From an uncultured Planctomycetia bacterium (GTDB lineage: Bacteria; Omnitrophota; Gorgyraeia; 2-02-FULL-51-18; JAGOUK01): DNA of 64,000 nucleotides. The notes under the pieces were generated by a model. It did no database searches. It was not told the origin of the DNA and saw only the letters and a list, made by a program, of their open reading frames with translations. Where the stretch lies: assembly GCA_964430735.1 (NCBI GenBank), contig CAYSFB010000004.1, positions 40,040 through 104,039 on the forward strand, given 5' to 3'. Each line of letters opens with the position of its first letter. Position 1 is the stretch's first letter. A program made the translations under genes and the position numbers. Positions 7,053-48,673 of this stretch are shown here, piece after piece.

Positions 7053-8348
7053 ATGGCACAAGCGGGTTTAAAAATTCTGGTGGTCGGTTCGGGCGGACGG
7101 GAACACGTCCTCGCCTGGAAGGCCGCGCAGAGCCCGAGAGTCGCCCGCGTTTTTTGCGCCCCGGGCAACGCCGGAACGGCCGCCGTCGCCCAGAACGTCG
7201 CGATTTCGGCGACGGATGTCGCCGCGCTGGCCGCTTTCGCCCAAAAAGAATCGATCGACCTCACGCTGGTTGGCCCCGAAGCGCCGCTCACGGCCGGCAT
7301 CGTCGATGCGTTCAAGGCCAAGGGGCTCAAAGTTTTTGGCCCCGACCAATACTGCGCCCAGCTGGAAGGCAGCAAAGTTTTTTCCAAGCGCCTCATGCGC
7401 AAGCTCGGGATTCCCACCGCCGCTTCCGAGGAATTCACCGACGCCGCGAAGGCGGTCGAATATTTGCGCCAACACGCGTACCCGGTCGTGATCAAGGCCG
7501 ACGGCCTGGCCGCCGGCAAGGGCGTGACGATCGCCGCGACCTTTGCCGAAGCCGAGCAGGCCGTGCGCGAAGCGATGACCGACCGCGTATTCGGCGACGC
7601 CGGATCCAAAATTCTGATCGAGGAGTGTCTGGTCGGCGAGGAAGCGTCGCTCATCGCCGTCTGCGACGGCGAAACGGCCGTCTGCCTCGCGTCGAGCCAG
7701 GATCACAAGCGCATCTTCGACGGAGACCAGGGCCCCAATACGGGCGGCATGGGCGCGTATTCTCCGGCGCCAGTCGTGACGCCCCAAGTCGACCAGGAAG
7801 CGCTCGATCGGATCTTCAAGCCGGTGCTCAAGGAGCTCAAAGCCCAGGGCCACCCGTTCGTCGGATTTTTGTACGCCGGTCTCATGATCACGGCCAAGGG
7901 CATGTACGTGCTCGAGTTTAATGTGCGGTTCGGCGACCCCGAAGCGCAGGCGGTGCTGCCGCGGCTCAAGACCGACCTTGTCGATGTGGCCGAGGCCTGC
8001 GTGAGCGGCACGCTCAAAGACCTGAAGCTCGAATGGACGAAGGACGTTTCGGTCACGGTTGTTCTGGCCGCGGGCGGATATCCCGGCACGCCGCGCAAGG
8101 GCGACGCGATCGAGGTGCTCGGCACGGGCTGGCCGAAAGAGATTCAGGTATTTCACGCGGGAACCGAAGCGAAGGACGGCAAAGTCGTCACCAGCGGCGG
8201 CCGTGTGCTCGCGGTAACGGCGCTCGGCGCGGACGTCGCGGCGGCCGTCGACCGGGCTTATTGGGGCGTCGGCCGCATCCGGTTCGAGGGGATGCAGTTC
8301 CGCCGGGATATCGCGCATCGGGCTTTGGAACGACTCACGCGCCGTTAA
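7053..8348 (+). CDS. purD: Phosphoribosylamine--glycine ligase
   Basis: MAQAGLKILVVGSGGREHVLAWKAAQSPRV... matches the ATP-grasp PurD. Confidence 0.9.
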   Translation: MAQAGLKILVVGSGGREHVLAWKAAQSPRVARVFCAPGNAGTAAVAQNVAISATDVAALAAFAQKESIDLTLVGPEAPLTAGIVDAFKAKGLKVFGPDQYCAQLEGSKVFSKRLMRKLGIPTAASEEFTDAAKAVEYLRQHAYPVVIKADGLAAGKGVTIAATFAEAEQAVREAMTDRVFGDAGSKILIEECLVGEEASLIAVCDGETAVCLASSQDHKRIFDGDQGPNTGGMGAYSPAPVVTPQVDQEALDRIFKPVLKELKAQGHPFVGFLYAGLMITAKGMYVLEFNVRFGDPEAQAVLPRLKTDLVDVAEACVSGTLKDLKLEWTKDVSVTVVLAAGGYPGTPRKGDAIEVLGTGWPKEIQVFHAGTEAKDGKVVTSGGRVLAVTALGADVAAAVDRAYWGVGRIRFEGMQFRRDIAHRALERLTRR

Positions 8349-8374
8349 TTTTTAAGAAACAAGGAGCTCACCAC

Positions 8375-8869
8375 ATGTCTCAATCTCCCGTGCGCGCCGT
8401 CATCCTCATGGGTTCCGCGAACGACGCGGAACAGCTCAAGCCCGCCGGCCAGGTCTTCAAGGACTTCGGAATTCCGTACGAAGCGCGCGTGCTGTCCGCC
8501 CACCGCACGCCCAACGAAACCGTCCAATTTATCTCCGACGCCGAGAAGCGCGGCTGCGAAGTCGTGATCGCGGCGGCCGGCGGCGCGGCCCACCTGGCCG
8601 GTGTCTGCGCGGCCCACACGCTGCTGCCCGTGATCGGGGTCCCGATCGAATCGAAGAGTCTTAAAGGGCTGGATTCGCTGCTCTCCACCGTGCAGATGCC
8701 TCCCGGCATCCCGGTCGCGACGGTCGGCATCGGCCCCCTGGGCGGCAAGAACGCGGGCCTTTTGGCCGTGCGCATCATGGCCGTCAAAGACAAGGCGCTC
8801 GCGGCGCGGCTCGACGCTTTTCGTGAAAAGATGCGCCAGGAAATTCTGGCCACCAAGATCGACGTCTAG
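8375..8869 (+). CDS. purE: N5-carboxyaminoimidazole ribonucleotide mutase (PurE)
   Basis: MSQSPVRAVILMGSANDAEQL...AAGGAAHLAGVCAAHTLLPVIGVPI matches the PurE signature. An RBS aaggag lies upstream of ATG 8375. Confidence 0.9.
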   Translation: MSQSPVRAVILMGSANDAEQLKPAGQVFKDFGIPYEARVLSAHRTPNETVQFISDAEKRGCEVVIAAAGGAAHLAGVCAAHTLLPVIGVPIESKSLKGLDSLLSTVQMPPGIPVATVGIGPLGGKNAGLLAVRIMAVKDKALAARLDAFREKMRQEILATKIDV

Positions 8870-18868: not shown

Positions 18869-19504
18869 ATGAATCCTTCAGGACCCCGACTCGGACTTCG
18901 GATTGCGCTCGCCGCCGCCTGCATCTTCGCCGCGCCGCTCGCCGCCTCGGCTCAGGAGGAGCTGCCGGAATATTTTAAGATCGGCCCGCAGGGGGATCTG
19001 ACCTGCGTCGGGGCGCTCGAAGACGCCTGCGCCTATTACGACGAAATTCCCGTACCCGGAAAGACGCTTTTTTTGGTCCAGGGCAGCTACTCCGTCAAGT
19101 CCCACCCCGCCCAACTGAGACAGATCGGCCCCCACATCCTCAATTACTACTTTGCGCTCCTGTGCGAGCGCGAGGGTGACACGCTCAAGCCTGTTTTTAA
19201 CTTCCTGGAAGGGCGGGAGCGCGCCAGCGACATCCATTTGCACGATCTGGACGCCGATGGCGTGCCGGAAGTCATCGTCGTCGGAGCCTTTGATTCCCGC
19301 GGTTCCTACGCGTCCGTGTACCGGGTCGAGAGCGGCCGGCAGGTGCAGATCTTCACCCGGCGCGCGAACACCCCCAACATTGATTTTGAAGTCGATCACG
19401 GTGCCGCCGTGATCACGCTCGAGCAGCGCAACCCCAAGACGCACGGCGATCTGGTCCGCGAAGTCTTCGTCTGGAACGGGAAGGAATTCGCCCTCCAGTC
19501 ATGA
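18869..19504 (+). CDS. Hypothetical secreted protein
   Basis: Signal peptide LRIALAAACIFAAPLAASAQE. No recognisable domain. The stop overlaps the dinB start. Confidence 0.5.
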   Translation: MNPSGPRLGLRIALAAACIFAAPLAASAQEELPEYFKIGPQGDLTCVGALEDACAYYDEIPVPGKTLFLVQGSYSVKSHPAQLRQIGPHILNYYFALLCEREGDTLKPVFNFLEGRERASDIHLHDLDADGVPEVIVVGAFDSRGSYASVYRVESGRQVQIFTRRANTPNIDFEVDHGAAVITLEQRNPKTHGDLVREVFVWNGKEFALQS

Positions 19505-35850: not shown

Positions 35851-36927
35851 ATGATCACGCTCGGCATCGAAACTTCCTGCGACGAAACCGCCGTGGCGGT
35901 GGTCAGCGGAAACAAAATCCTCTCCGAAGTCGTCGCGTCGAGCATGGACCGGCACGCGCCGTACGGCGGCGTCGTTCCGGAGATCGCTTCGCGCGCCCAC
36001 ACCGAGGCGCTCCTGCCGCTCATCGACGCCGCGCTTCAAAAATCCAAAACTCCGCTCCGCAACATCGGACTCATCGCCGTGACGGGCGGTCCGGGGCTTT
36101 TGGGCTCCGTGCTGGTCGGCGTCGCCGCCGCCAAATCCGCCGCCGTCGCGCTCAAGAAGCCGGTCGCCTTCGTCGATCATGTGCTGGCCCACGCCTACGC
36201 CGGCGTCTGGCGGCTTCCGCCGGCCCGCCGCTATCCCTTTGTCGCGCTGGTGGTTTCGGGCGGACATACGATCCTCATCCATTGGAAATCCGCCGGGGAC
36301 ATCGAGCTCATCGGCAAGACGATGGACGACGCGGCCGGAGAGGCCTTTGACAAGGTCGGCAAGATGCTCGGGCTGGGGTATCCGGGCGGACCGGTGATCG
36401 ACCGCATCGCCCGGACCGGCGACGTCAAGGCGTTCCAGTTCCCGCGATCTCAGATGAACGAAGAGCACCTCGACTTCAGCTTCAGCGGCCTCAAGACGTC
36501 GGTTTTTTACAAAGTCTCGGCGCTCGAAAAGGAAGGGGCGCTGACCGACGCGGTCAAAGCCGACGTCGCGGCCGGCTTCCAGGAAGCGGCCTGCGAAGTG
36601 CTGGCGGCCAAGGCCGTTCGGGCCTGCCGGGAACGGAAGGTTAAAAGGCTCGTCGTCGGAGGCGGTGTGAGCGCCAACAGCCGGCTTCAGGAGCTTTTGA
36701 ATGCGGCGGGCCGGGAGTCGGGGATCGACGTGGTGTTTCCGGGGGTCAAGCTCTCGGTCGACAACGCCGTCATGATCGCGGCTCTGGGGCAGGAGATGGC
36801 CCGGGCCGGGTCGAGCCGGCTGGGCCGGCCGGCGAAGGGCCGCGCGGCGCTGGAATTCGAGCCGTACGCCGATTTCTTCGGGCGCAAATTTTTTTATACC
36901 CATTCCCGGAAGGGTAGGTTAGAATAA
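35851..36927 (+). CDS. tsaD: tRNA N6-adenosine threonylcarbamoyltransferase
   Basis: MITLGIETSCDETAVAVV...HVLAHAYA...VVSGGHT is the Kae1/TsaD signature. Confidence 0.9.
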   Translation: MITLGIETSCDETAVAVVSGNKILSEVVASSMDRHAPYGGVVPEIASRAHTEALLPLIDAALQKSKTPLRNIGLIAVTGGPGLLGSVLVGVAAAKSAAVALKKPVAFVDHVLAHAYAGVWRLPPARRYPFVALVVSGGHTILIHWKSAGDIELIGKTMDDAAGEAFDKVGKMLGLGYPGGPVIDRIARTGDVKAFQFPRSQMNEEHLDFSFSGLKTSVFYKVSALEKEGALTDAVKADVAAGFQEAACEVLAAKAVRACRERKVKRLVVGGGVSANSRLQELLNAAGRESGIDVVFPGVKLSVDNAVMIAALGQEMARAGSSRLGRPAKGRAALEFEPYADFFGRKFFYTHSRKGRLE

Positions 36928-37095
36928 TTCTCAAATTGAATTGAACCGGCCGCCCAGGGCCGGGTCCCGGCTCAGGCCGGCGACCGACCGCTTCCAGCGG
37001 ATGGATCACCCGCACAAATTTAGGTTCCGCTTCTGACAGCGATAATCGCCCGTGTTCCGAGTTGGTCCGCTTCGGCGGTCCGGGAGGAGTCAGCG

Positions 37096-37674
37096 ATGTT
37101 CATGCGAAAAAAGAACCCTCAAGCGGCCCATCCTTTCGTCGAAACGCCGCGGGAAAGAGTCCTCGAAATCGACGCGGCCACGCAAGGCGCCCTCACCTTC
37201 AAAGATCCCGTCAACATTCTGATCAGCGGACGTTTTGAGGGGACCTTGGACGCCGCCGGTTCTTTGACGGTCGGAGAAAAAGCCCAGGTCAAGGCGCGCA
37301 TCAAAAGCGGCCGGGTGCTGATCCATGGCGAAATGGTCGGCGACGTGATCGCGGCCGAATCCCTGAAGATTTGCGCAGGCGGCCGCCTGGTCGGCGACGT
37401 CCGGACGCCGGAGCTGATCGTGGAGCCCGGCGCAGTTCTCCACGGGGACGTGAGCATGATCGTTTCGCCGGACCGCTTTGCGGCGGATTCGAGACTCGTT
37501 CTGTCCGAGGATTTGTGGAGCGTCGACCAATTGGCGGCGTACCTGTCGGTGGAACGATCGATGATTTTTGAATGGGCGGACGCGGGGCGTCTCCCCGGCA
37601 TCAAGGACGAAAACGGCTGGCATTTTGACAAGCGGAAGGTGGACGAGTGGGTGACGAGCGGAAGGATCGGATGA
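37096..37674 (+). CDS. Bactofilin-domain protein fused to a C-terminal excisionase-type helix-turn-helix (HTH_17-like)
   Basis: Bactofilin beta-helix repeats: ILISGRFEGTLDAAGSLTVGEKAQVKARIKSGRVLIHGEMVGDVIAAESLKICAGGRLVGDV. The C-terminal LWSVDQLAAYLSVERSMIFEWADAGRLPGIKDENGWHFDKRKVDEWV fits the excisionase/AlpA-type HTH pattern. Confidence 0.7.
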   Translation: MFMRKKNPQAAHPFVETPRERVLEIDAATQGALTFKDPVNILISGRFEGTLDAAGSLTVGEKAQVKARIKSGRVLIHGEMVGDVIAAESLKICAGGRLVGDVRTPELIVEPGAVLHGDVSMIVSPDRFAADSRLVLSEDLWSVDQLAAYLSVERSMIFEWADAGRLPGIKDENGWHFDKRKVDEWVTSGRIG

Positions 37675-38012
37675 CGGACGAGAGTTTTATCACGCTCAAG
37701 GACGCCGCAGAGATCCTGGAATTGTCCGAGCCCGAGGTCGAGAACCTGATCAACCACCACAAGCTGACCGCCTACCAGCTCGGCGACCAGGTGATCCGCC
37801 TGCGCCGCGACCAGGTGTGGGAGTATCAGTCCAAGGCGCGTCTTTCGGCCGAGCTGTTTCCGGACGACCGGCGCAAGCACCACAATGCGCCGGCGCTGAC
37901 GCCGCCGAACGCGATCGAACGCGCGCTGGACTTCATTTATTTCAACGATTTTTACATCATTTGTTTTGCGGCGATCGGAGTGCTTCTGTATCTGATCCTG
38001 TCGGCGCAGTGA
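37671..38012 (+). CDS. HTH_17-like DNA-binding domain protein with a C-terminal transmembrane anchor. ATGA overlap with the bactofilin-HTH gene.
   Basis: ITLKDAAEILELSEPEVENLINHHKLTAYQLGDQVIRLRRDQVWEY (HTH). The C-terminal hydrophobic FYIICFAAIGVLLYLILSA is a predicted TM segment. Confidence 0.55.
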   Translation: MTDESFITLKDAAEILELSEPEVENLINHHKLTAYQLGDQVIRLRRDQVWEYQSKARLSAELFPDDRRKHHNAPALTPPNAIERALDFIYFNDFYIICFAAIGVLLYLILSAQ

Positions 38013-38095
38013 CCTCGAAGTCCGAACCAACCGCACCCACCCATAACCCCTAAAAAGTTCCTCCAAAAGACGAGTCTGGCGAACCGATAAACAAA

Positions 38096-40786
38096 ATGGT
38101 CTTTTATCTCATCGACGGCACCGCGATCTGCTACCGGGCTTATTACGCGTACGCCACCAAAAATCTCCACAATTCCAAGGGTCTGCCGACGAACGTTCCG
38201 TACGGCTTCCTGCTCGTTTTGCGCAAGCTGCTGGCGGACAACAAGCCCGACGGCATCATGGTCGCCTTTGACGTCAAGGGTCCGACCTTCCGCCACGAGA
38301 AGCTCGATACCTACAAGGCCAACCGAAAGCCGACCCCGGACGACCTCGTCGCCCAGATCCCATACGTGAAGCGCCTCGTCGAAGCCCACCGGATTCCGGT
38401 GATCGAAAAGCAGGGGTACGAGGCCGACGACGTCATGGGGACGCTCGCGCAGCGGTTGAGAAAAAAGGGCCACGAAGTCGTGATCGTGACCAGCGACAAG
38501 GATATCTGCCAGCTCGTGACCGACCACATCCGCGTCATGGACCCGGGCAAGGACTACGCGCTGCTCGGGCCGATGGAAGTCCGAGAGAAGCTCGGCGTTT
38601 CTCCCGACCAGGTCGTCGATTATCTCGCCATGGTGGGGGACGCGTCCGACAACATTCCCGGCGTGCCCGGCATCGGCCCGAAGACCGCCGTGGAGCTCAT
38701 TCAGGAACACAAATCCCTCGACGGCATTTACCGCAATCTCGACAAGATCAAGGGTGAGTCCAAGAAAAAGGCGCTCGCGGAAAACGAGCCGACCGCCCGT
38801 CTCGCGCAGGAATTGGCCACGATCGACTGCGACATTCCCGTTTCGGCGACCGAAGAAGAGATGATGCGCCGCGACCCGGATCCGGCGCTGCTCAAGGCTC
38901 TGTATCAGGAGCTCGAGTTCAAGTCCTTTCTCAAGGAATTGCCGCATCCGACTGTCCAGGATTCCCCGGACAAGAGCTACCATCTGGTCACCAAGCCCAA
39001 GGAATGGAAGGCGCTGCTCGCCCAGCTCAAAAAATTAAGCCGCTTCAGCCTCGACTTCGAAACGACCGGGATCGACGCGCTTACGGTGAAGCCGGTCGGC
39101 CTGTCGTTTTCCTTCAAGTCCCACGAAGCCTACTTCGTCCTGTTCGATATCCACGCGTCAGGAAAAAGCGAATTGTCTGCCGCCGACGTGCTGGCGGATC
39201 TGAAGCCCATCCTCGAGGACCCAGGCGTCAAGAAGATCGGCCAGAACATCAAATACGAAATGATGGTGCTCAAAGCCCATGGGATCGAACTCGCAGGCGC
39301 GGACTTCGACACGATGATCGCGTCGTATCTTCTCAATCCGTCGAAGTCGACCCACAACTTGAGCGAGCTGGCTTCGGAGCATCTGGACGAGCGGCTGGTC
39401 GAGATCGAAACGCTCATCGGGACGGGTAAAAAGCAGATCACGATGGCCGAGGCCGACGTGGACCAGCTGTACCGGTACGGCTGCCAGGATTCGGACGTCG
39501 TCTGGCGCCTGGCCGGCATCCTCGAGCCCCGGGTCGAAGCGTCGGAGATGAAGGACTTGCTCGAAAAGATCGAGATGCCCCTCGTGCGCGTCCTTTGCGA
39601 CATGGAGTCGGCCGGCATCGCGATCGACGTGAAGTTCCTCGAAGATTTTTCCGCGCGGATGGAAAAGGAAATCGCCGCGCTCACCAAAAAGATCCACAAG
39701 CTGGCCGGCGGCGAATTCAACATCAATTCGCCCAAACAGCTCGGCGAGATCCTCTTCGAAAAGCTCAAGCTGCCCCACACCCGCAAGACCAAGACCGGTT
39801 ACACGACCGACGCCGGCGCGCTCGAAGAACTGGCGGCGCTGCACGAACTTCCGGCCCAGATCCTGGATTACCGTGAATTGGCCAAGCTGAAGTCCACTTA
39901 TGTCGATCCGCTGCCCGAGATGCGCAGTCCCAAGGATCACCGCATCCACACCTCGTACAACCAGACGGTTGCGGCCACGGGCCGCCTCTCGTCCAGCGAT
40001 CCGAATCTTCAGAACATCCCGATCCGCACCGAGGAAGGCCGCGAAGTGCGCCGCGCGTTCGTCGCACCCAAGGGCCATTTGCTGCTGTCCGCGGATTACT
40101 CCCAGATCGAATTGCGCATTCTGGCCCATTTGTCGGGCGATCCGAATCTGACGAAGGCTTTTGCTGAGAACCAGGACGTCCACGCGTATACGGCCAGCCT
40201 CGTCTTTGGCGTGGATCTGGCGGACGTGTCGCCGCAGATGCGCGACCAGGCCAAGACGGTCAACTTCGGCGTGCTTTACGGCATGGGACCCTTCGGCCTC
40301 GCCCGGTCGCTCAAAATCACCCAGGAAGCCGCCCGCGACTTCATCAAGGCCTATTTCGAACGCTATCCCAGGATCAAGGCGTTCATGGACGACACGCTCG
40401 ACTTCGCCCGCAAGAAGGGTTATGTCGAAACGCTGCTCAAGCGCCGGCGTTACATCCCGGACATCGAGTCCAAGGACATGCGGATGCGCCAGTTCGCCGA
40501 GCGCACCGCGATCAACGCGCCGGTTCAGGGGACGGCGAGCGACCTGATCAAGATCGCGATGGTTGCGATCCACCGCCGCCTCGGCGAAAAAGGCGCGCCG
40601 GCCGGAACGCGGATGCTCCTGCAGGTGCACGACGACCTGGTGTTCGAAGTTCCCGAAAAAGAATTGCATGCCGCCGCGAAGCTCGTCCGCGAGGAGATGG
40701 AGGGCGCGATCGCTCTCGACGTTCCCGTGCGCGTGAGCGTGAAGGCCGGTCCCAACTGGAAAGACATGGAGAAGCTCAAAGTCTGA
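38096..40786 (+). CDS. polA: DNA polymerase I
   Basis: 5'-3' exonuclease N-terminus. A 3'-5' exonuclease-like middle domain. Polymerase motifs RRAFVAPKGHLLLSADYSQIELRILAHLS (motif A) and QVHDDLVFE (motif C). Confidence 0.9.
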   Translation: MVFYLIDGTAICYRAYYAYATKNLHNSKGLPTNVPYGFLLVLRKLLADNKPDGIMVAFDVKGPTFRHEKLDTYKANRKPTPDDLVAQIPYVKRLVEAHRIPVIEKQGYEADDVMGTLAQRLRKKGHEVVIVTSDKDICQLVTDHIRVMDPGKDYALLGPMEVREKLGVSPDQVVDYLAMVGDASDNIPGVPGIGPKTAVELIQEHKSLDGIYRNLDKIKGESKKKALAENEPTARLAQELATIDCDIPVSATEEEMMRRDPDPALLKALYQELEFKSFLKELPHPTVQDSPDKSYHLVTKPKEWKALLAQLKKLSRFSLDFETTGIDALTVKPVGLSFSFKSHEAYFVLFDIHASGKSELSAADVLADLKPILEDPGVKKIGQNIKYEMMVLKAHGIELAGADFDTMIASYLLNPSKSTHNLSELASEHLDERLVEIETLIGTGKKQITMAEADVDQLYRYGCQDSDVVWRLAGILEPRVEASEMKDLLEKIEMPLVRVLCDMESAGIAIDVKFLEDFSARMEKEIAALTKKIHKLAGGEFNINSPKQLGEILFEKLKLPHTRKTKTGYTTDAGALEELAALHELPAQILDYRELAKLKSTYVDPLPEMRSPKDHRIHTSYNQTVAATGRLSSSDPNLQNIPIRTEEGREVRRAFVAPKGHLLLSADYSQIELRILAHLSGDPNLTKAFAENQDVHAYTASLVFGVDLADVSPQMRDQAKTVNFGVLYGMGPFGLARSLKITQEAARDFIKAYFERYPRIKAFMDDTLDFARKKGYVETLLKRRRYIPDIESKDMRMRQFAERTAINAPVQGTASDLIKIAMVAIHRRLGEKGAPAGTRMLLQVHDDLVFEVPEKELHAAAKLVREEMEGAIALDVPVRVSVKAGPNWKDMEKLKV

Positions 40787-47761: not shown

Positions 47762-48673
47762 TTACTGGCCCCCCGGCCCGGCCGATTCCGGACCTTCCTC
47801 CCGAGCTCTAAAGTTTCCGATCGTCTCATGGAACACGGCGTTTTTGCCGCGTTTCTTGGCGCCGTACATGCAGCTGTCGGACGCGCGCAGGATGTCGTCG
47901 ACGCTCGACGGCGCGGCGAGGAATGTGACGGCACCGATGCTGAAATTGATCTTCCAACCCTTTTTCTCCAGCTCCGACCTTAACGATTTGCGCAACTTTT
48001 CGGCGGCAAGCTGAGCCTTGTCCGGATCGGTTTGAAGCAGCAGCACGCCGAATTCGTCGCCGCCCAGCCGCGCGACGCAGTCCGACGCGCGTACGAGTGC
48101 CTGGAGCGCCTGGGCGATGTCTTTGAGGAGACGGTCGCCGCCGGTGTGGCCGAGCCGGTCGTTGACGGCCTTGAAGTCGTCACAGTCAAGATAGAGCGCG
48201 GTGAAGGGCTGATGGTAGCGGCGGCATCGCCGGATTTCCTGTTCGGCAAAGATCTGGAACCAGCGGCGGTTGGCGATTCCGGTCAGGGGATCTTCCAGCG
48301 ATTGCCGGCGTTCCCGCAGAAACAGATCGACCGTGATGCAGAAGGCCGAAAAGATGAGCCCGCGCACGACCCAGTTCCACAGCGGTGCCCACACTGCGCC
48401 GTAGGGGCGGCCGGAGGCGATCTCGGCCCAGGCCCATAGAAGCGACGACACGAAGCACATCACGAGGCCGAAGCGGGCCGAGACCCAGATCACGCCGAGA
48501 AAAATCGGGATCAGGTAAAACGCGGACATCGAGATGAAATAACCGGCGGCGTAATTGATGTAGCCGATGAGCGCGGTGAACAGGACGAGGGCGGCGGACA
48601 AAGCGGCACGCATCCAGGGATTGACCTGGGGCCTGGCCGGCTGGGGAGTCCAAACGAAGTTGGGCTTCATCAA
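47762..48673 (-). CDS. Diguanylate cyclase (GGDEF) with an N-terminal polytopic membrane sensor region
   Basis: DPLTGIANRRWF...YLDCDDFKAVNDRLGHTGGDRLL...RLGGDEFGVLL. Confidence 0.8.
   Translation of the reverse strand: MMKPNFVWTPQPARPQVNPWMRAALSAALVLFTALIGYINYAAGYFISMSAFYLIPIFLGVIWVSARFGLVMCFVSSLLWAWAEIASGRPYGAVWAPLWNWVVRGLIFSAFCITVDLFLRERRQSLEDPLTGIANRRWFQIFAEQEIRRCRRYHQPFTALYLDCDDFKAVNDRLGHTGGDRLLKDIAQALQALVRASDCVARLGGDEFGVLLLQTDPDKAQLAAEKLRKSLRSELEKKGWKINFSIGAVTFLAAPSSVDDILRASDSCMYGAKKRGKNAVFHETIGNFRAREEGPESAGPGGQ

Follow-up and report, generated by a model that had tools for sequence, protein, structure and literature searches.

Bactofilins are widespread cytoskeletal scaffolds for which the rules of client recruitment are only now emerging, and the Omnitrophota are an uncultivated phylum of mostly ultra-small bacteria about whose cell biology, to our knowledge, almost nothing is known. 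Here we describe two neighbouring genes from an Omnitrophota genome, in a stretch of 64,000 nucleotides (contig CAYSFB010000004.1 of assembly GCA_964430735.1, positions 40,040 to 104,039 of the forward strand) that we call the window. Open reading frame 1 (ORF1) encodes a bactofilin fused at its C-terminus to a winged helix of the helix-turn-helix (HTH) class, and ORF2, directly downstream, encodes a second winged-helix protein which ends in a predicted membrane anchor (Table 1). A first-pass annotation of the window had placed both ORFs at exactly these coordinates and had proposed that together they tether DNA, via the bactofilin polymer, to the membrane. The pair is real, conserved and unstudied; no paper on it came up in full-text searches that paired bactofilin with HTH, excisionase or Omnitrophota, so that the architecture appears, as that annotation had supposed, to be undescribed. 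The DNA-polymer-membrane tether is not the best-supported reading of the pair, and we favour, tentatively, one in which the two winged helices dock on each other at the membrane.

Table 1. Coordinates, in the window, of the ORF1-ORF2 gene pair and its parts.
Feature	Position	Strand	Basis or remark
Shine-Dalgarno GGGAGGAG, 6 nt 5' of the ORF1 ATG	37082-37089	+	Direct sequence reading
ORF1, bactofilin–winged-helix fusion protein, 192 aa	37096-37674	+	Pfam Bactofilin and HTH_17, homologous clusters, third-codon-position substitutions
N-terminal peptide MFMRKKN, membrane-targeting-like	37096-37116	+	Lies within the disordered tail, residues 1-19
Bactofilin beta-helix core, residues 22-121	37159-37458	+	Pfam, AlphaFold2, Foldseek
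ORF1 linker, residues 122-139, variable	37459-37512	+	pLDDT 54-64; length differs in alignment A1
ORF1 C-terminal MerR/Xis-type winged helix, residues 140-189, with acidic recognition helix and basic wing	37513-37662	+	HTH_17, TIGR01764, Foldseek
ORF2, tail-anchored winged-helix partner	37647-38012	+	113 aa from ATG 37671; 121 aa from GTG 37647
ORF2 winged helix, residues 6-55	37686-37835	+	Pfam, PDB profile matches, Foldseek
ORF2 linker, residues 63-80, variable	37857-37910	+	pLDDT 56-59; length differs among orthologues, alignment A2
Juxtamembrane motif D-F-I-Y-F-N-D-F-Y-I, residues 87-96	37929-37958	+	Alignment A3
C-terminal hydrophobic helix, residues 93-112, predicted tail anchor	37947-38006	+	AlphaFold2, hydrophobicity

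Profile searches support the bactofilin and HTH assignments in both proteins. The ORF1 protein matches the Pfam family Bactofilin (PF04519) over residues 24-119 with an E value of 3.7e-21 and 75.6 bits, against a cut-off of 27.9, and matches HTH_17 (PF12728) over residues 142-189 marginally (29.9 bits; gathering score 27). The ORF2 protein matches HTH_17 over residues 7-55 by a similarly marginal score (27.8 bits against 27), and both pass the cut-off of 28.8 of the NCBIfam model TIGR01764 'excise', again marginally, with 30.2 for ORF1 and 30.6 for ORF2. Nearly all members of both families carry a precomputed PF12728 assignment. Since the HTH_17 scores are marginal, both winged helices were also checked by structure.

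In the AlphaFold2 model of the ORF1 protein, for which 30 family sequences were the input, a disordered tail (residues 1-19; predicted local distance difference test, pLDDT, below 50) is followed by a beta-helix of 13 strands (residues 22-121; pLDDT 91-97) and, after the linker, by an alpha-alpha-beta-beta-alpha winged helix at residues 140-187 (pLDDT 85-89). The predicted template modelling score (pTM) of 0.55, taken with the pLDDT of the linker, argues that the two domains have no fixed arrangement with respect to each other. Foldseek matched the core, in the PDB, to the bactofilin of T. thermophilus (TtBac) and to BacA, with a probability of 1.00 for 6rib and a target-normalised TM-score of 0.83 for 2n3d (root-mean-square deviation, rmsd, 2.3 A); TtBac and BacA were also matched in a PDB search by sequence. 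The winged helices of both proteins superpose on BldC with an rmsd of 1.1-1.6 A over about 50 residues, and their other fold matches include Pukovnik Xis, RdfS, DNA-bound RacA and the GIsul2 excisionase. Profile-to-PDB searches agree with this picture, those with ORF2 returning Pukovnik Xis, Tn916 Xis and BldC.

The global consensus of bactofilin membrane-targeting peptides is MFSKKKK, whose two N-terminal hydrophobic residues enter the bilayer while the lysines touch the lipid head groups (PMC12448750). The fusion family begins with the pattern M-[MAFIL]-[GLM]-[RK]-[KR]-x-[KR], with M, A, F, I or L as second residue and with K or R occupying positions 4, 5 and 7 in roughly 70-80% of its members. 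At the polymerisation interface, compared at the level of alignment with BacA F130 and TtBac F105, the BacA polymerisation residue F130 falls on L115 of ORF1, where the aligned members have L or F (alignment A1). From these features we infer that polymerisation and membrane binding by the ORF1 protein are plausible.

The AlphaFold2 model of ORF2, with 53 sequences as input, shows a winged helix at residues 6-62, a disordered linker, and two helices at residues 81-91 and 93-112 with pLDDT 87-97. Hydrophobicity along the protein is highest over the last 20 or so residues (mean Kyte-Doolittle value 2.5), which, with the Pfam match and the predicted helix, bears out the proposal that ORF2 is an HTH_17 protein with a C-terminal membrane anchor. 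Throughout the partner family, 16-20 mostly hydrophobic residues (mean Kyte-Doolittle value 2.7) lie between the juxtamembrane motif and the C-terminus, and the protein ends 1-4 residues past its membrane helix. No other feature of the module is as well conserved as this motif, which in the family has the form D-F-[FL]-Y-F-N-D-F-Y-I, with two invariant aspartates amid aromatic residues: D87, Y90, D93, Y95 and I96 are invariant in alignment A3, F88, F91, N92 and F94 are at least 90% conserved, and a profile search with the partner, which matched 2045 clusters, found the motif in 120 of the 120 top matches. A Pfam search placed no family over this C-terminal element.

Translational coupling of the two genes through an ATGA overlap had been suggested by the first-pass annotation. 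The overlap does exist here, at ATG 37671, and is specific to this genome: the ATG becomes CTG, TTG or GTA in the closest relatives, and in other clades, where the genes are separated by gaps of 0-196 nt, overlap is not general. GTG 37647 is conserved where the ATG is not; therefore the true start of ORF2 may lie 24 nt upstream, at this GTG, in which case the overlap would be 28 nt. At the position of the ORF1 Shine-Dalgarno, GGAAGGAG is kept in the clade relatives. A hidden Markov model of either HTH gave no match to the other HTH, even at E values up to 10, which suggests that the two domains are old, diverged paralogues at best, and the window contains no other HTH_17-like ORFs.

In both reading frames, substitutions between the window and three relatives pile up at the third codon position (40/32/87 and 11/6/38 by codon position, for example), and this bias, together with the recurrence of the architecture in over 120 protein clusters and no fewer than 381 species genomes, argues that the gene pair is not a chance arrangement. 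An antisense ORF of 315 residues (37119-38066, minus strand), which lies over both genes and would be chosen by a longest-ORF rule, was rejected as spurious on the codon-position substitutions and the domain evidence; it is the kind of ORF typical of G+C-rich DNA.

The fusion is a compact family, so far seen only in Omnitrophota. A word-indexed search gave 128 protein clusters of 160-195 residues, nearly all with the same two Pfam domains, and every organism named in them is an Omnitrophota metagenome-assembled genome (MAG). The database names that these proteins carry, 'polymer-forming cytoskeletal protein' and 'excisionase family DNA binding protein', are generic only. When one genome per GTDB species was scanned by pattern, relatives appeared in at least 381 genomes, the best 80 of which are Omnitrophota MAGs or single-amplified genomes, or third-party annotation (TPA) assemblies labelled 'uncultured Planctomycetia' or 'uncultured bacterium'. 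Where these TPA assemblies are long enough, they show the Omnitrophota gene order, and many of the 'uncultured Planctomycetia bacterium' genomes (loci L006, L012, L017, L019 and others) have the order ctpB-tsaD-mgtC-fusion-partner-larB; their label is probably a placeholder, not evidence for the module in Planctomycetia. In a profile search of 1.84 billion cluster representatives, 46 matches were found at an E value of 1e-30 or below, of which about 25 are full-length two-domain proteins, the remaining 30,000 or so weaker matches being plain bactofilins, HTH proteins or HTH repeats; among the 150 matches listed there was no second, clearly separate fusion family. Two HTH-repeat proteins that came up in this search are unusual in architecture and unrelated to the module: P0277, of 4162 residues, has more than 20 tandem HTH_3/HTH_31 repeats, and P0296, of 417 residues, has seven tandem canonical basic HTH_17 domains.

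That the two genes form a functional pair, as had been proposed, is borne out by their strict co-occurrence and adjacency. By a regular-expression search, the partner ORF lies directly downstream of the fusion gene, on the same strand, in 79 of the 85 fetched loci. Among the six exceptions, one (L076) has the partner with a variant motif, DLLYTYDFYV, another (L072) shows the beginning of the partner before its contig ends, and in the other four the contig stops less than about 160 nt after the fusion gene. Co-occurrence is complete wherever it can be judged, in 80 of the 80 loci with enough sequence.

The genes around the pair are less constant. Directly upstream stands mgtC in 56 of 73 loci and tsaD in 14 of 73; directly downstream stands larB, usually with larC, in 39 of 66 loci, and polA in 3 of 66, all of these from the window's clade. 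The first-pass annotation had pointed to the position of the pair in front of polA, which begins at 38096, 83 nt past ORF2. This holds for the locus itself, and the 3/66 count argues that the adjacency is incidental. The order gatB-ctpB-tsaD-...-polA or larB is kept in every fetched locus that reaches upstream.

The tether proposed for the pair would have the winged helices of the polymer, of the partner, or of both, hold chromosomal DNA at the membrane, possibly with avidity supplied by many weak sites, and with the nucleoid or a specific locus held as it is by RacA-DivIVA or Noc. Profile and fold alike place the two HTHs in a class that binds DNA, their nearest structures being Pukovnik Xis, BldC on DNA and RacA on DNA. 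We compared them with the DNA contacts of BldC, in which Lys26 and Arg30 read bases, Thr27, Thr29, Lys33 and Trp31 touch phosphates, and the wing residues His46, Arg47 and Arg48 enter the minor groove; an R30A substitution abolishes DNA binding by BldC, and RacA uses the equivalent arginine (PMC5859096). BldC was aligned by hand, with a sequence that is consistent with every residue number in that paper, and columns were counted in 121 fusion proteins and 205 partner proteins.

At the Arg30 position, 86 of the 121 proteins of the fusion family have E, 17 have D, 16 have Q, 1 has N and 1 has A, and none has a basic residue. The Lys26 position is S, A or G in 108/121, the Lys33 position is mostly N, D or Q, and the position of Arg50 is D, E or N in all 121; Trp31 is invariant. 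The partner family has a conserved acidic residue at E20 (95%), and its phosphate-contact positions are largely acidic, with E/D22 at the Thr27 position in 90% and D/E28 at the Lys33 position in 77%. Its Arg30 position, which is D or E in 45%, flips between R/K and D/E among orthologues and is therefore unlike a conserved DNA contact. In the window's ORF2 the basic-contact positions of BldC are occupied by P21, N25 and N28. Over 61 paired sequences, the recognition helix averages 0.46 basic and 1.3 acidic residues in the fusion and 1.4 basic and 3.3 acidic residues in the partner. The net charge of the HTH is -2 on average in the fusion and -0.4 in the partner, and -5 in the window's partner, whereas Pukovnik Xis and Tn916 Xis, by hand count over their aligned regions, each come to about +4. 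The basic recognition-helix contacts of an HTH_17 DNA binder (BldC K26, R30 and K33) were found neither in the ORF1 family nor in the window's ORF2, and the basic minor-groove wing (BldC R47/R48) is present. On these residues a canonical, sequence-specific reading of the major groove is unlikely, above all for the fusion and, within the window's clade, for both proteins.

What still speaks for the tether are the fold class, the wings and the precedent of RacA. Basic wing residues are conserved in both families, K/R165, K/R179 and K/R181 being present in at least 94% of the fusion proteins (K/R179 in 100%) and R43, R/K45 and K/R46 in 100%, 98% and 84% of the partners, so that weak, non-specific DNA contact through the wings would be possible. 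Xis/BldC-type domains bind DNA cooperatively and head-to-tail, in a manner that a polymer array would favour; bactofilins of Myxococcus organise ParABS (PMC5703909); and RacA, itself a MerR-like winged helix and among the nearest folds, anchors chromosomes to the cell pole according to work cited in PMC5859096. Against this stand the recognition-helix residues and net charges given above, and also the surroundings of the pair, where the neighbours are housekeeping genes and no parS, parAB or origin features adjoin. We consider the tether possible but doubtful. The same holds for its boldest form, a minimal self-assembling anchor between chromosome and membrane, or 'bactofilin kinetochore', which would be in use across the phylum and would hold DNA by the avidity of many weak wing contacts without reading sequence; put more broadly, each subunit would offer a docking domain for nucleic acid or protein and the partner would be a dedicated tail-anchored co-receptor.

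The reading that we favour, at somewhat short of even confidence, is that the fusion forms a membrane-bound bactofilin polymer whose winged helices dock the tail-anchored partner, in the way that the HTH of RodZ docks on MreB. The fusion would polymerise through its bactofilin beta-helix, the polymer would be membrane-associated, and one MerR/Xis-type winged helix would extend from each subunit by way of a flexible, roughly 18-residue linker. Lacking basic recognition-helix residues, this domain would dock its counterpart in the partner, perhaps head-to-tail and through complementary charges in the manner of Xis/BldC-type domains; the conserved acidic helix and basic wing of both proteins would suit such reciprocal docking. 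The polymer would then cluster or position the partner, and so present the invariant aromatic/acidic juxtamembrane motif and the membrane helix of that protein in the membrane. We count in favour of the docking that the partner is kept directly downstream of the fusion while the flanking genes change, and that CbpM, a MerR-like protein solved in complex with the J-domain of CbpA, is among the fold matches and is a precedent for docking by this fold. Other precedents come from cytoskeletal proteins: the XRE-type HTH of RodZ binds MreB and not DNA (PMC6946637); in B. subtilis the HTH protein BacR is bound by the bactofilins BacE and BacF and reaches the membrane through them (PMC13649987); and BacA recruits through its cytoplasmic tail the bitopic client PbpC, which in turn aids membrane attachment (PMC12448750).

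A close bactofilin relative of the fusion, P0288 (253 residues), with a very similar domain start, has a Bactofilin match of 86 bits and, where the HTH would be, a PilZ domain (39.6 bits), a receptor of cyclic di-GMP; the window itself encodes a GGDEF cyclase at 47762-48673 on the minus strand. The PilZ domain in the place of the HTH suggests that the C-terminal position of this bactofilin subfamily is an adaptor slot, in which adaptor or input domains could be exchanged.

Several points weigh against the docking reading. With few exceptions, the HTH_17, Xis and MerR-like domains characterised so far are DNA binders. The Arg48 position of BldC is R or K in 95 of the 121 fusion proteins (78%; H in the window) and R in 100% of the partners, so that both proteins have basic wings, and in the partners basic residues occupy the Thr29 position in 45% and the Arg30 position in 41%. 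Tn916 Xis, a genuine DNA binder, has an early acidic residue in its recognition helix, which means that acidity alone is no proof. The head-to-tail pairing of BldC was seen on DNA and not free in solution (PMC5859096). If the bactofilin binds the membrane by itself, moreover, the need for a second anchor would be left unexplained. Covariation was counted on neither side: mutual information with average-product correction and a charge-swap correlation, both calculated over 61 unique ORF1-ORF2 pairs from the fetched loci, gave clade signal only, the top covarying pairs tracking a single clade (for example K188/D48, in 17-19 sequences).

The precedent of BacR also suggests a different role, in which one or both HTHs would be transcription factors, for example autoregulators of the operon, controlled through sequestration on the polymer or through proteolytic release of the partner. 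BacR of B. subtilis is encoded with BacE and BacF, regulates their operon and is recruited to the membrane by them (PMC13649987), and a gene for an S41 (CtpB-like) protease lies two to four genes upstream of the pair in most loci. We think a switch of this kind unlikely here. The residue arguments against reading of DNA apply to it equally; the HTH of the fusion is covalently part of the polymer subunit and therefore cannot shuttle; and, as the partner extends only 1-4 residues past its membrane helix, it offers no extracytoplasmic sensor or cleavage substrate to the S41 protease, which would act across the membrane from it. Neither protein matches DUF4004, the family of BacR, at E values up to 1. 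A simple scan of positions 36700-38300 found no sigma-70-like promoter and no repeated operator-like motif, and terminator-like matches there were at the level of shuffled sequence. In the same region a TA(G/A)(A/G)AT box (TAGAAT in the window; 36900-36925), inside the 3' end of tsaD, is kept in four clade relatives, and a small GC hairpin, CCGC-TTCG-GCGG (37067-37078), just 5' of the ORF1 Shine-Dalgarno, is found in three of the four with a different stem; the two may be the promoter and the 5' untranslated-region hairpin of the pair.

A mobile-element excisionase, or the MAD1 component of a MADS defence system, would also fit the TIGR01764 match above cut-off, and there are weak matches to MAD1 (39.5 bits for NCBIfam NF047737; E value 3e-4 in PADLOC) and to excisionase families of the PHROGs. 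The MAD1 score is far under its 80-bit cut-off, the genes identified around the pair are housekeeping genes, no integrase, recombinase-like or defence gene is among the neighbours listed or scanned, and the pair is essentially absent from 2.9 million viral contigs, in which there was one match, to the HTH only. On this genomic context, and with PADLOC and PHROGs matches that are sub-threshold or weak and generic to HTHs, we rejected the excisionase, MADS and phage explanations as highly improbable.

The window as a whole is a housekeeping stretch of chromosome with 61% G+C, which includes purB, purL, purF, glyA, hisG, ftsH, dinB, glgB, gatB and tsaD, and further polA, glgA, rho, prfA, guaA, recQ and dnaE. 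An mgtC-family membrane-protein gene, where present, sits between tsaD and the fusion, about 0.4-0.8 kb upstream and often with tiny gaps; the window's clade is without it, and has instead a 168-nt intergenic region at 36928-37095. Downstream of the purB, purL and purF-like genes, at a distance of a few kilobases, is a gene for an AIRC-domain protein of 278 residues with a 120-residue N-terminal extension (8033-8866, plus strand); since an AIRC (larB-like) gene and larC directly follow the pair in most other Omnitrophota, gene order has been rearranged in the window's clade. Two further ORFs on the plus strand, at 16651-17592 (313 residues) and 18869-19504 (211 residues), have high third-position G+C and no Pfam match at an E value of 1e-5 or below.

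What is new here is a bactofilin with a folded C-terminal appendage, and with it an obligate partner family that bears an undescribed invariant motif, the fusion being kept with its tail-anchored partner in every informative Omnitrophota locus. The database name 'excisionase family DNA binding protein' is misleading for these proteins, and the present findings correct it. Should the winged helices dock on each other, the pair would join RodZ-MreB, to which it has no sequence relationship, as the second example of a DNA-binding fold put to use as an adaptor of the cytoskeleton, and DFxYFNDFYI would be defined as a new invariant membrane motif. Should they instead bind DNA, the fusion would provide the first example of a polymer that joins nucleoid to membrane by a DNA-binding domain of its own.

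Considering how the pair relates to known systems, the nearest in fold of its winged helices are BldC, Xis and RdfS, which are likewise stand-alone winged helices without the MerR coiled coil, and for which head-to-tail assembly is known. Those proteins are basic and bind DNA, whereas the domains of the pair, with their net acidic recognition helices, are carried on a polymer or a membrane anchor. Recombination directionality factors of this type are associated with integrases and mobile elements, a context that the pair is without.

The logic of RacA with DivIVA, or of Noc, in which a DNA-binding domain is connected through a scaffold to the membrane, is that which the first-pass annotation had proposed for the pair, and the DNA-binding domain of RacA, a MerR-like winged helix, is among the best fold matches to both proteins. 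RacA reads DNA, however, with the arginine equivalent to BldC Arg30, a position at which the fusion family has an acidic residue or Gln and the partner has no conserved residue; its scaffold, DivIVA, is a coiled coil to which it is not fused, while here the scaffold is a bactofilin and is fused. BacR (YhbD, DUF4004) is closer in its surroundings, as an HTH protein encoded in an operon with bactofilins, which it binds and through which it is located at the membrane (PMC13649987). It is a soluble and separate DNA-binding regulator, whereas in the Omnitrophota pair one HTH is fused to the bactofilin, the other is membrane-anchored, and the DNA-contact residues are degenerate.

ORF2 resembles RodZ in layout only: in both, an HTH at the cytoplasmic N-terminus is followed by a linker and one membrane helix. 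The HTH of RodZ binds a polymer and not DNA (PMC6946637). It is XRE-type, however, and that of ORF2 is MerR/Xis-type, matching Pfam HTH_17 and no XRE family (HTH_25, HTH_3); RodZ has a periplasmic domain, while the ORF2 family ends 16-20 residues past its motif. ORF2 is therefore an analogue, and not a homologue, of RodZ. The polymer differs likewise: MreB is actin-like, whereas here the bactofilin polymer itself carries an HTH, with no sequence relationship between the two systems. With the canonical bactofilins, BacA of C. crescentus and TtBac, the ORF1 protein shares the beta-helix, an N-terminus like the membrane-targeting sequence, a hydrophobic interface residue and a disordered N-terminal tail, and BacA has likewise an anchored, bitopic membrane partner in PbpC. 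The C-terminal tail of canonical bactofilins is usually unstructured, whereas ORF1 has a folded winged helix in its place; and where the partner of BacA is a cell-wall enzyme, the obligate partner of the ORF1 protein is a tail-anchored winged-helix protein.

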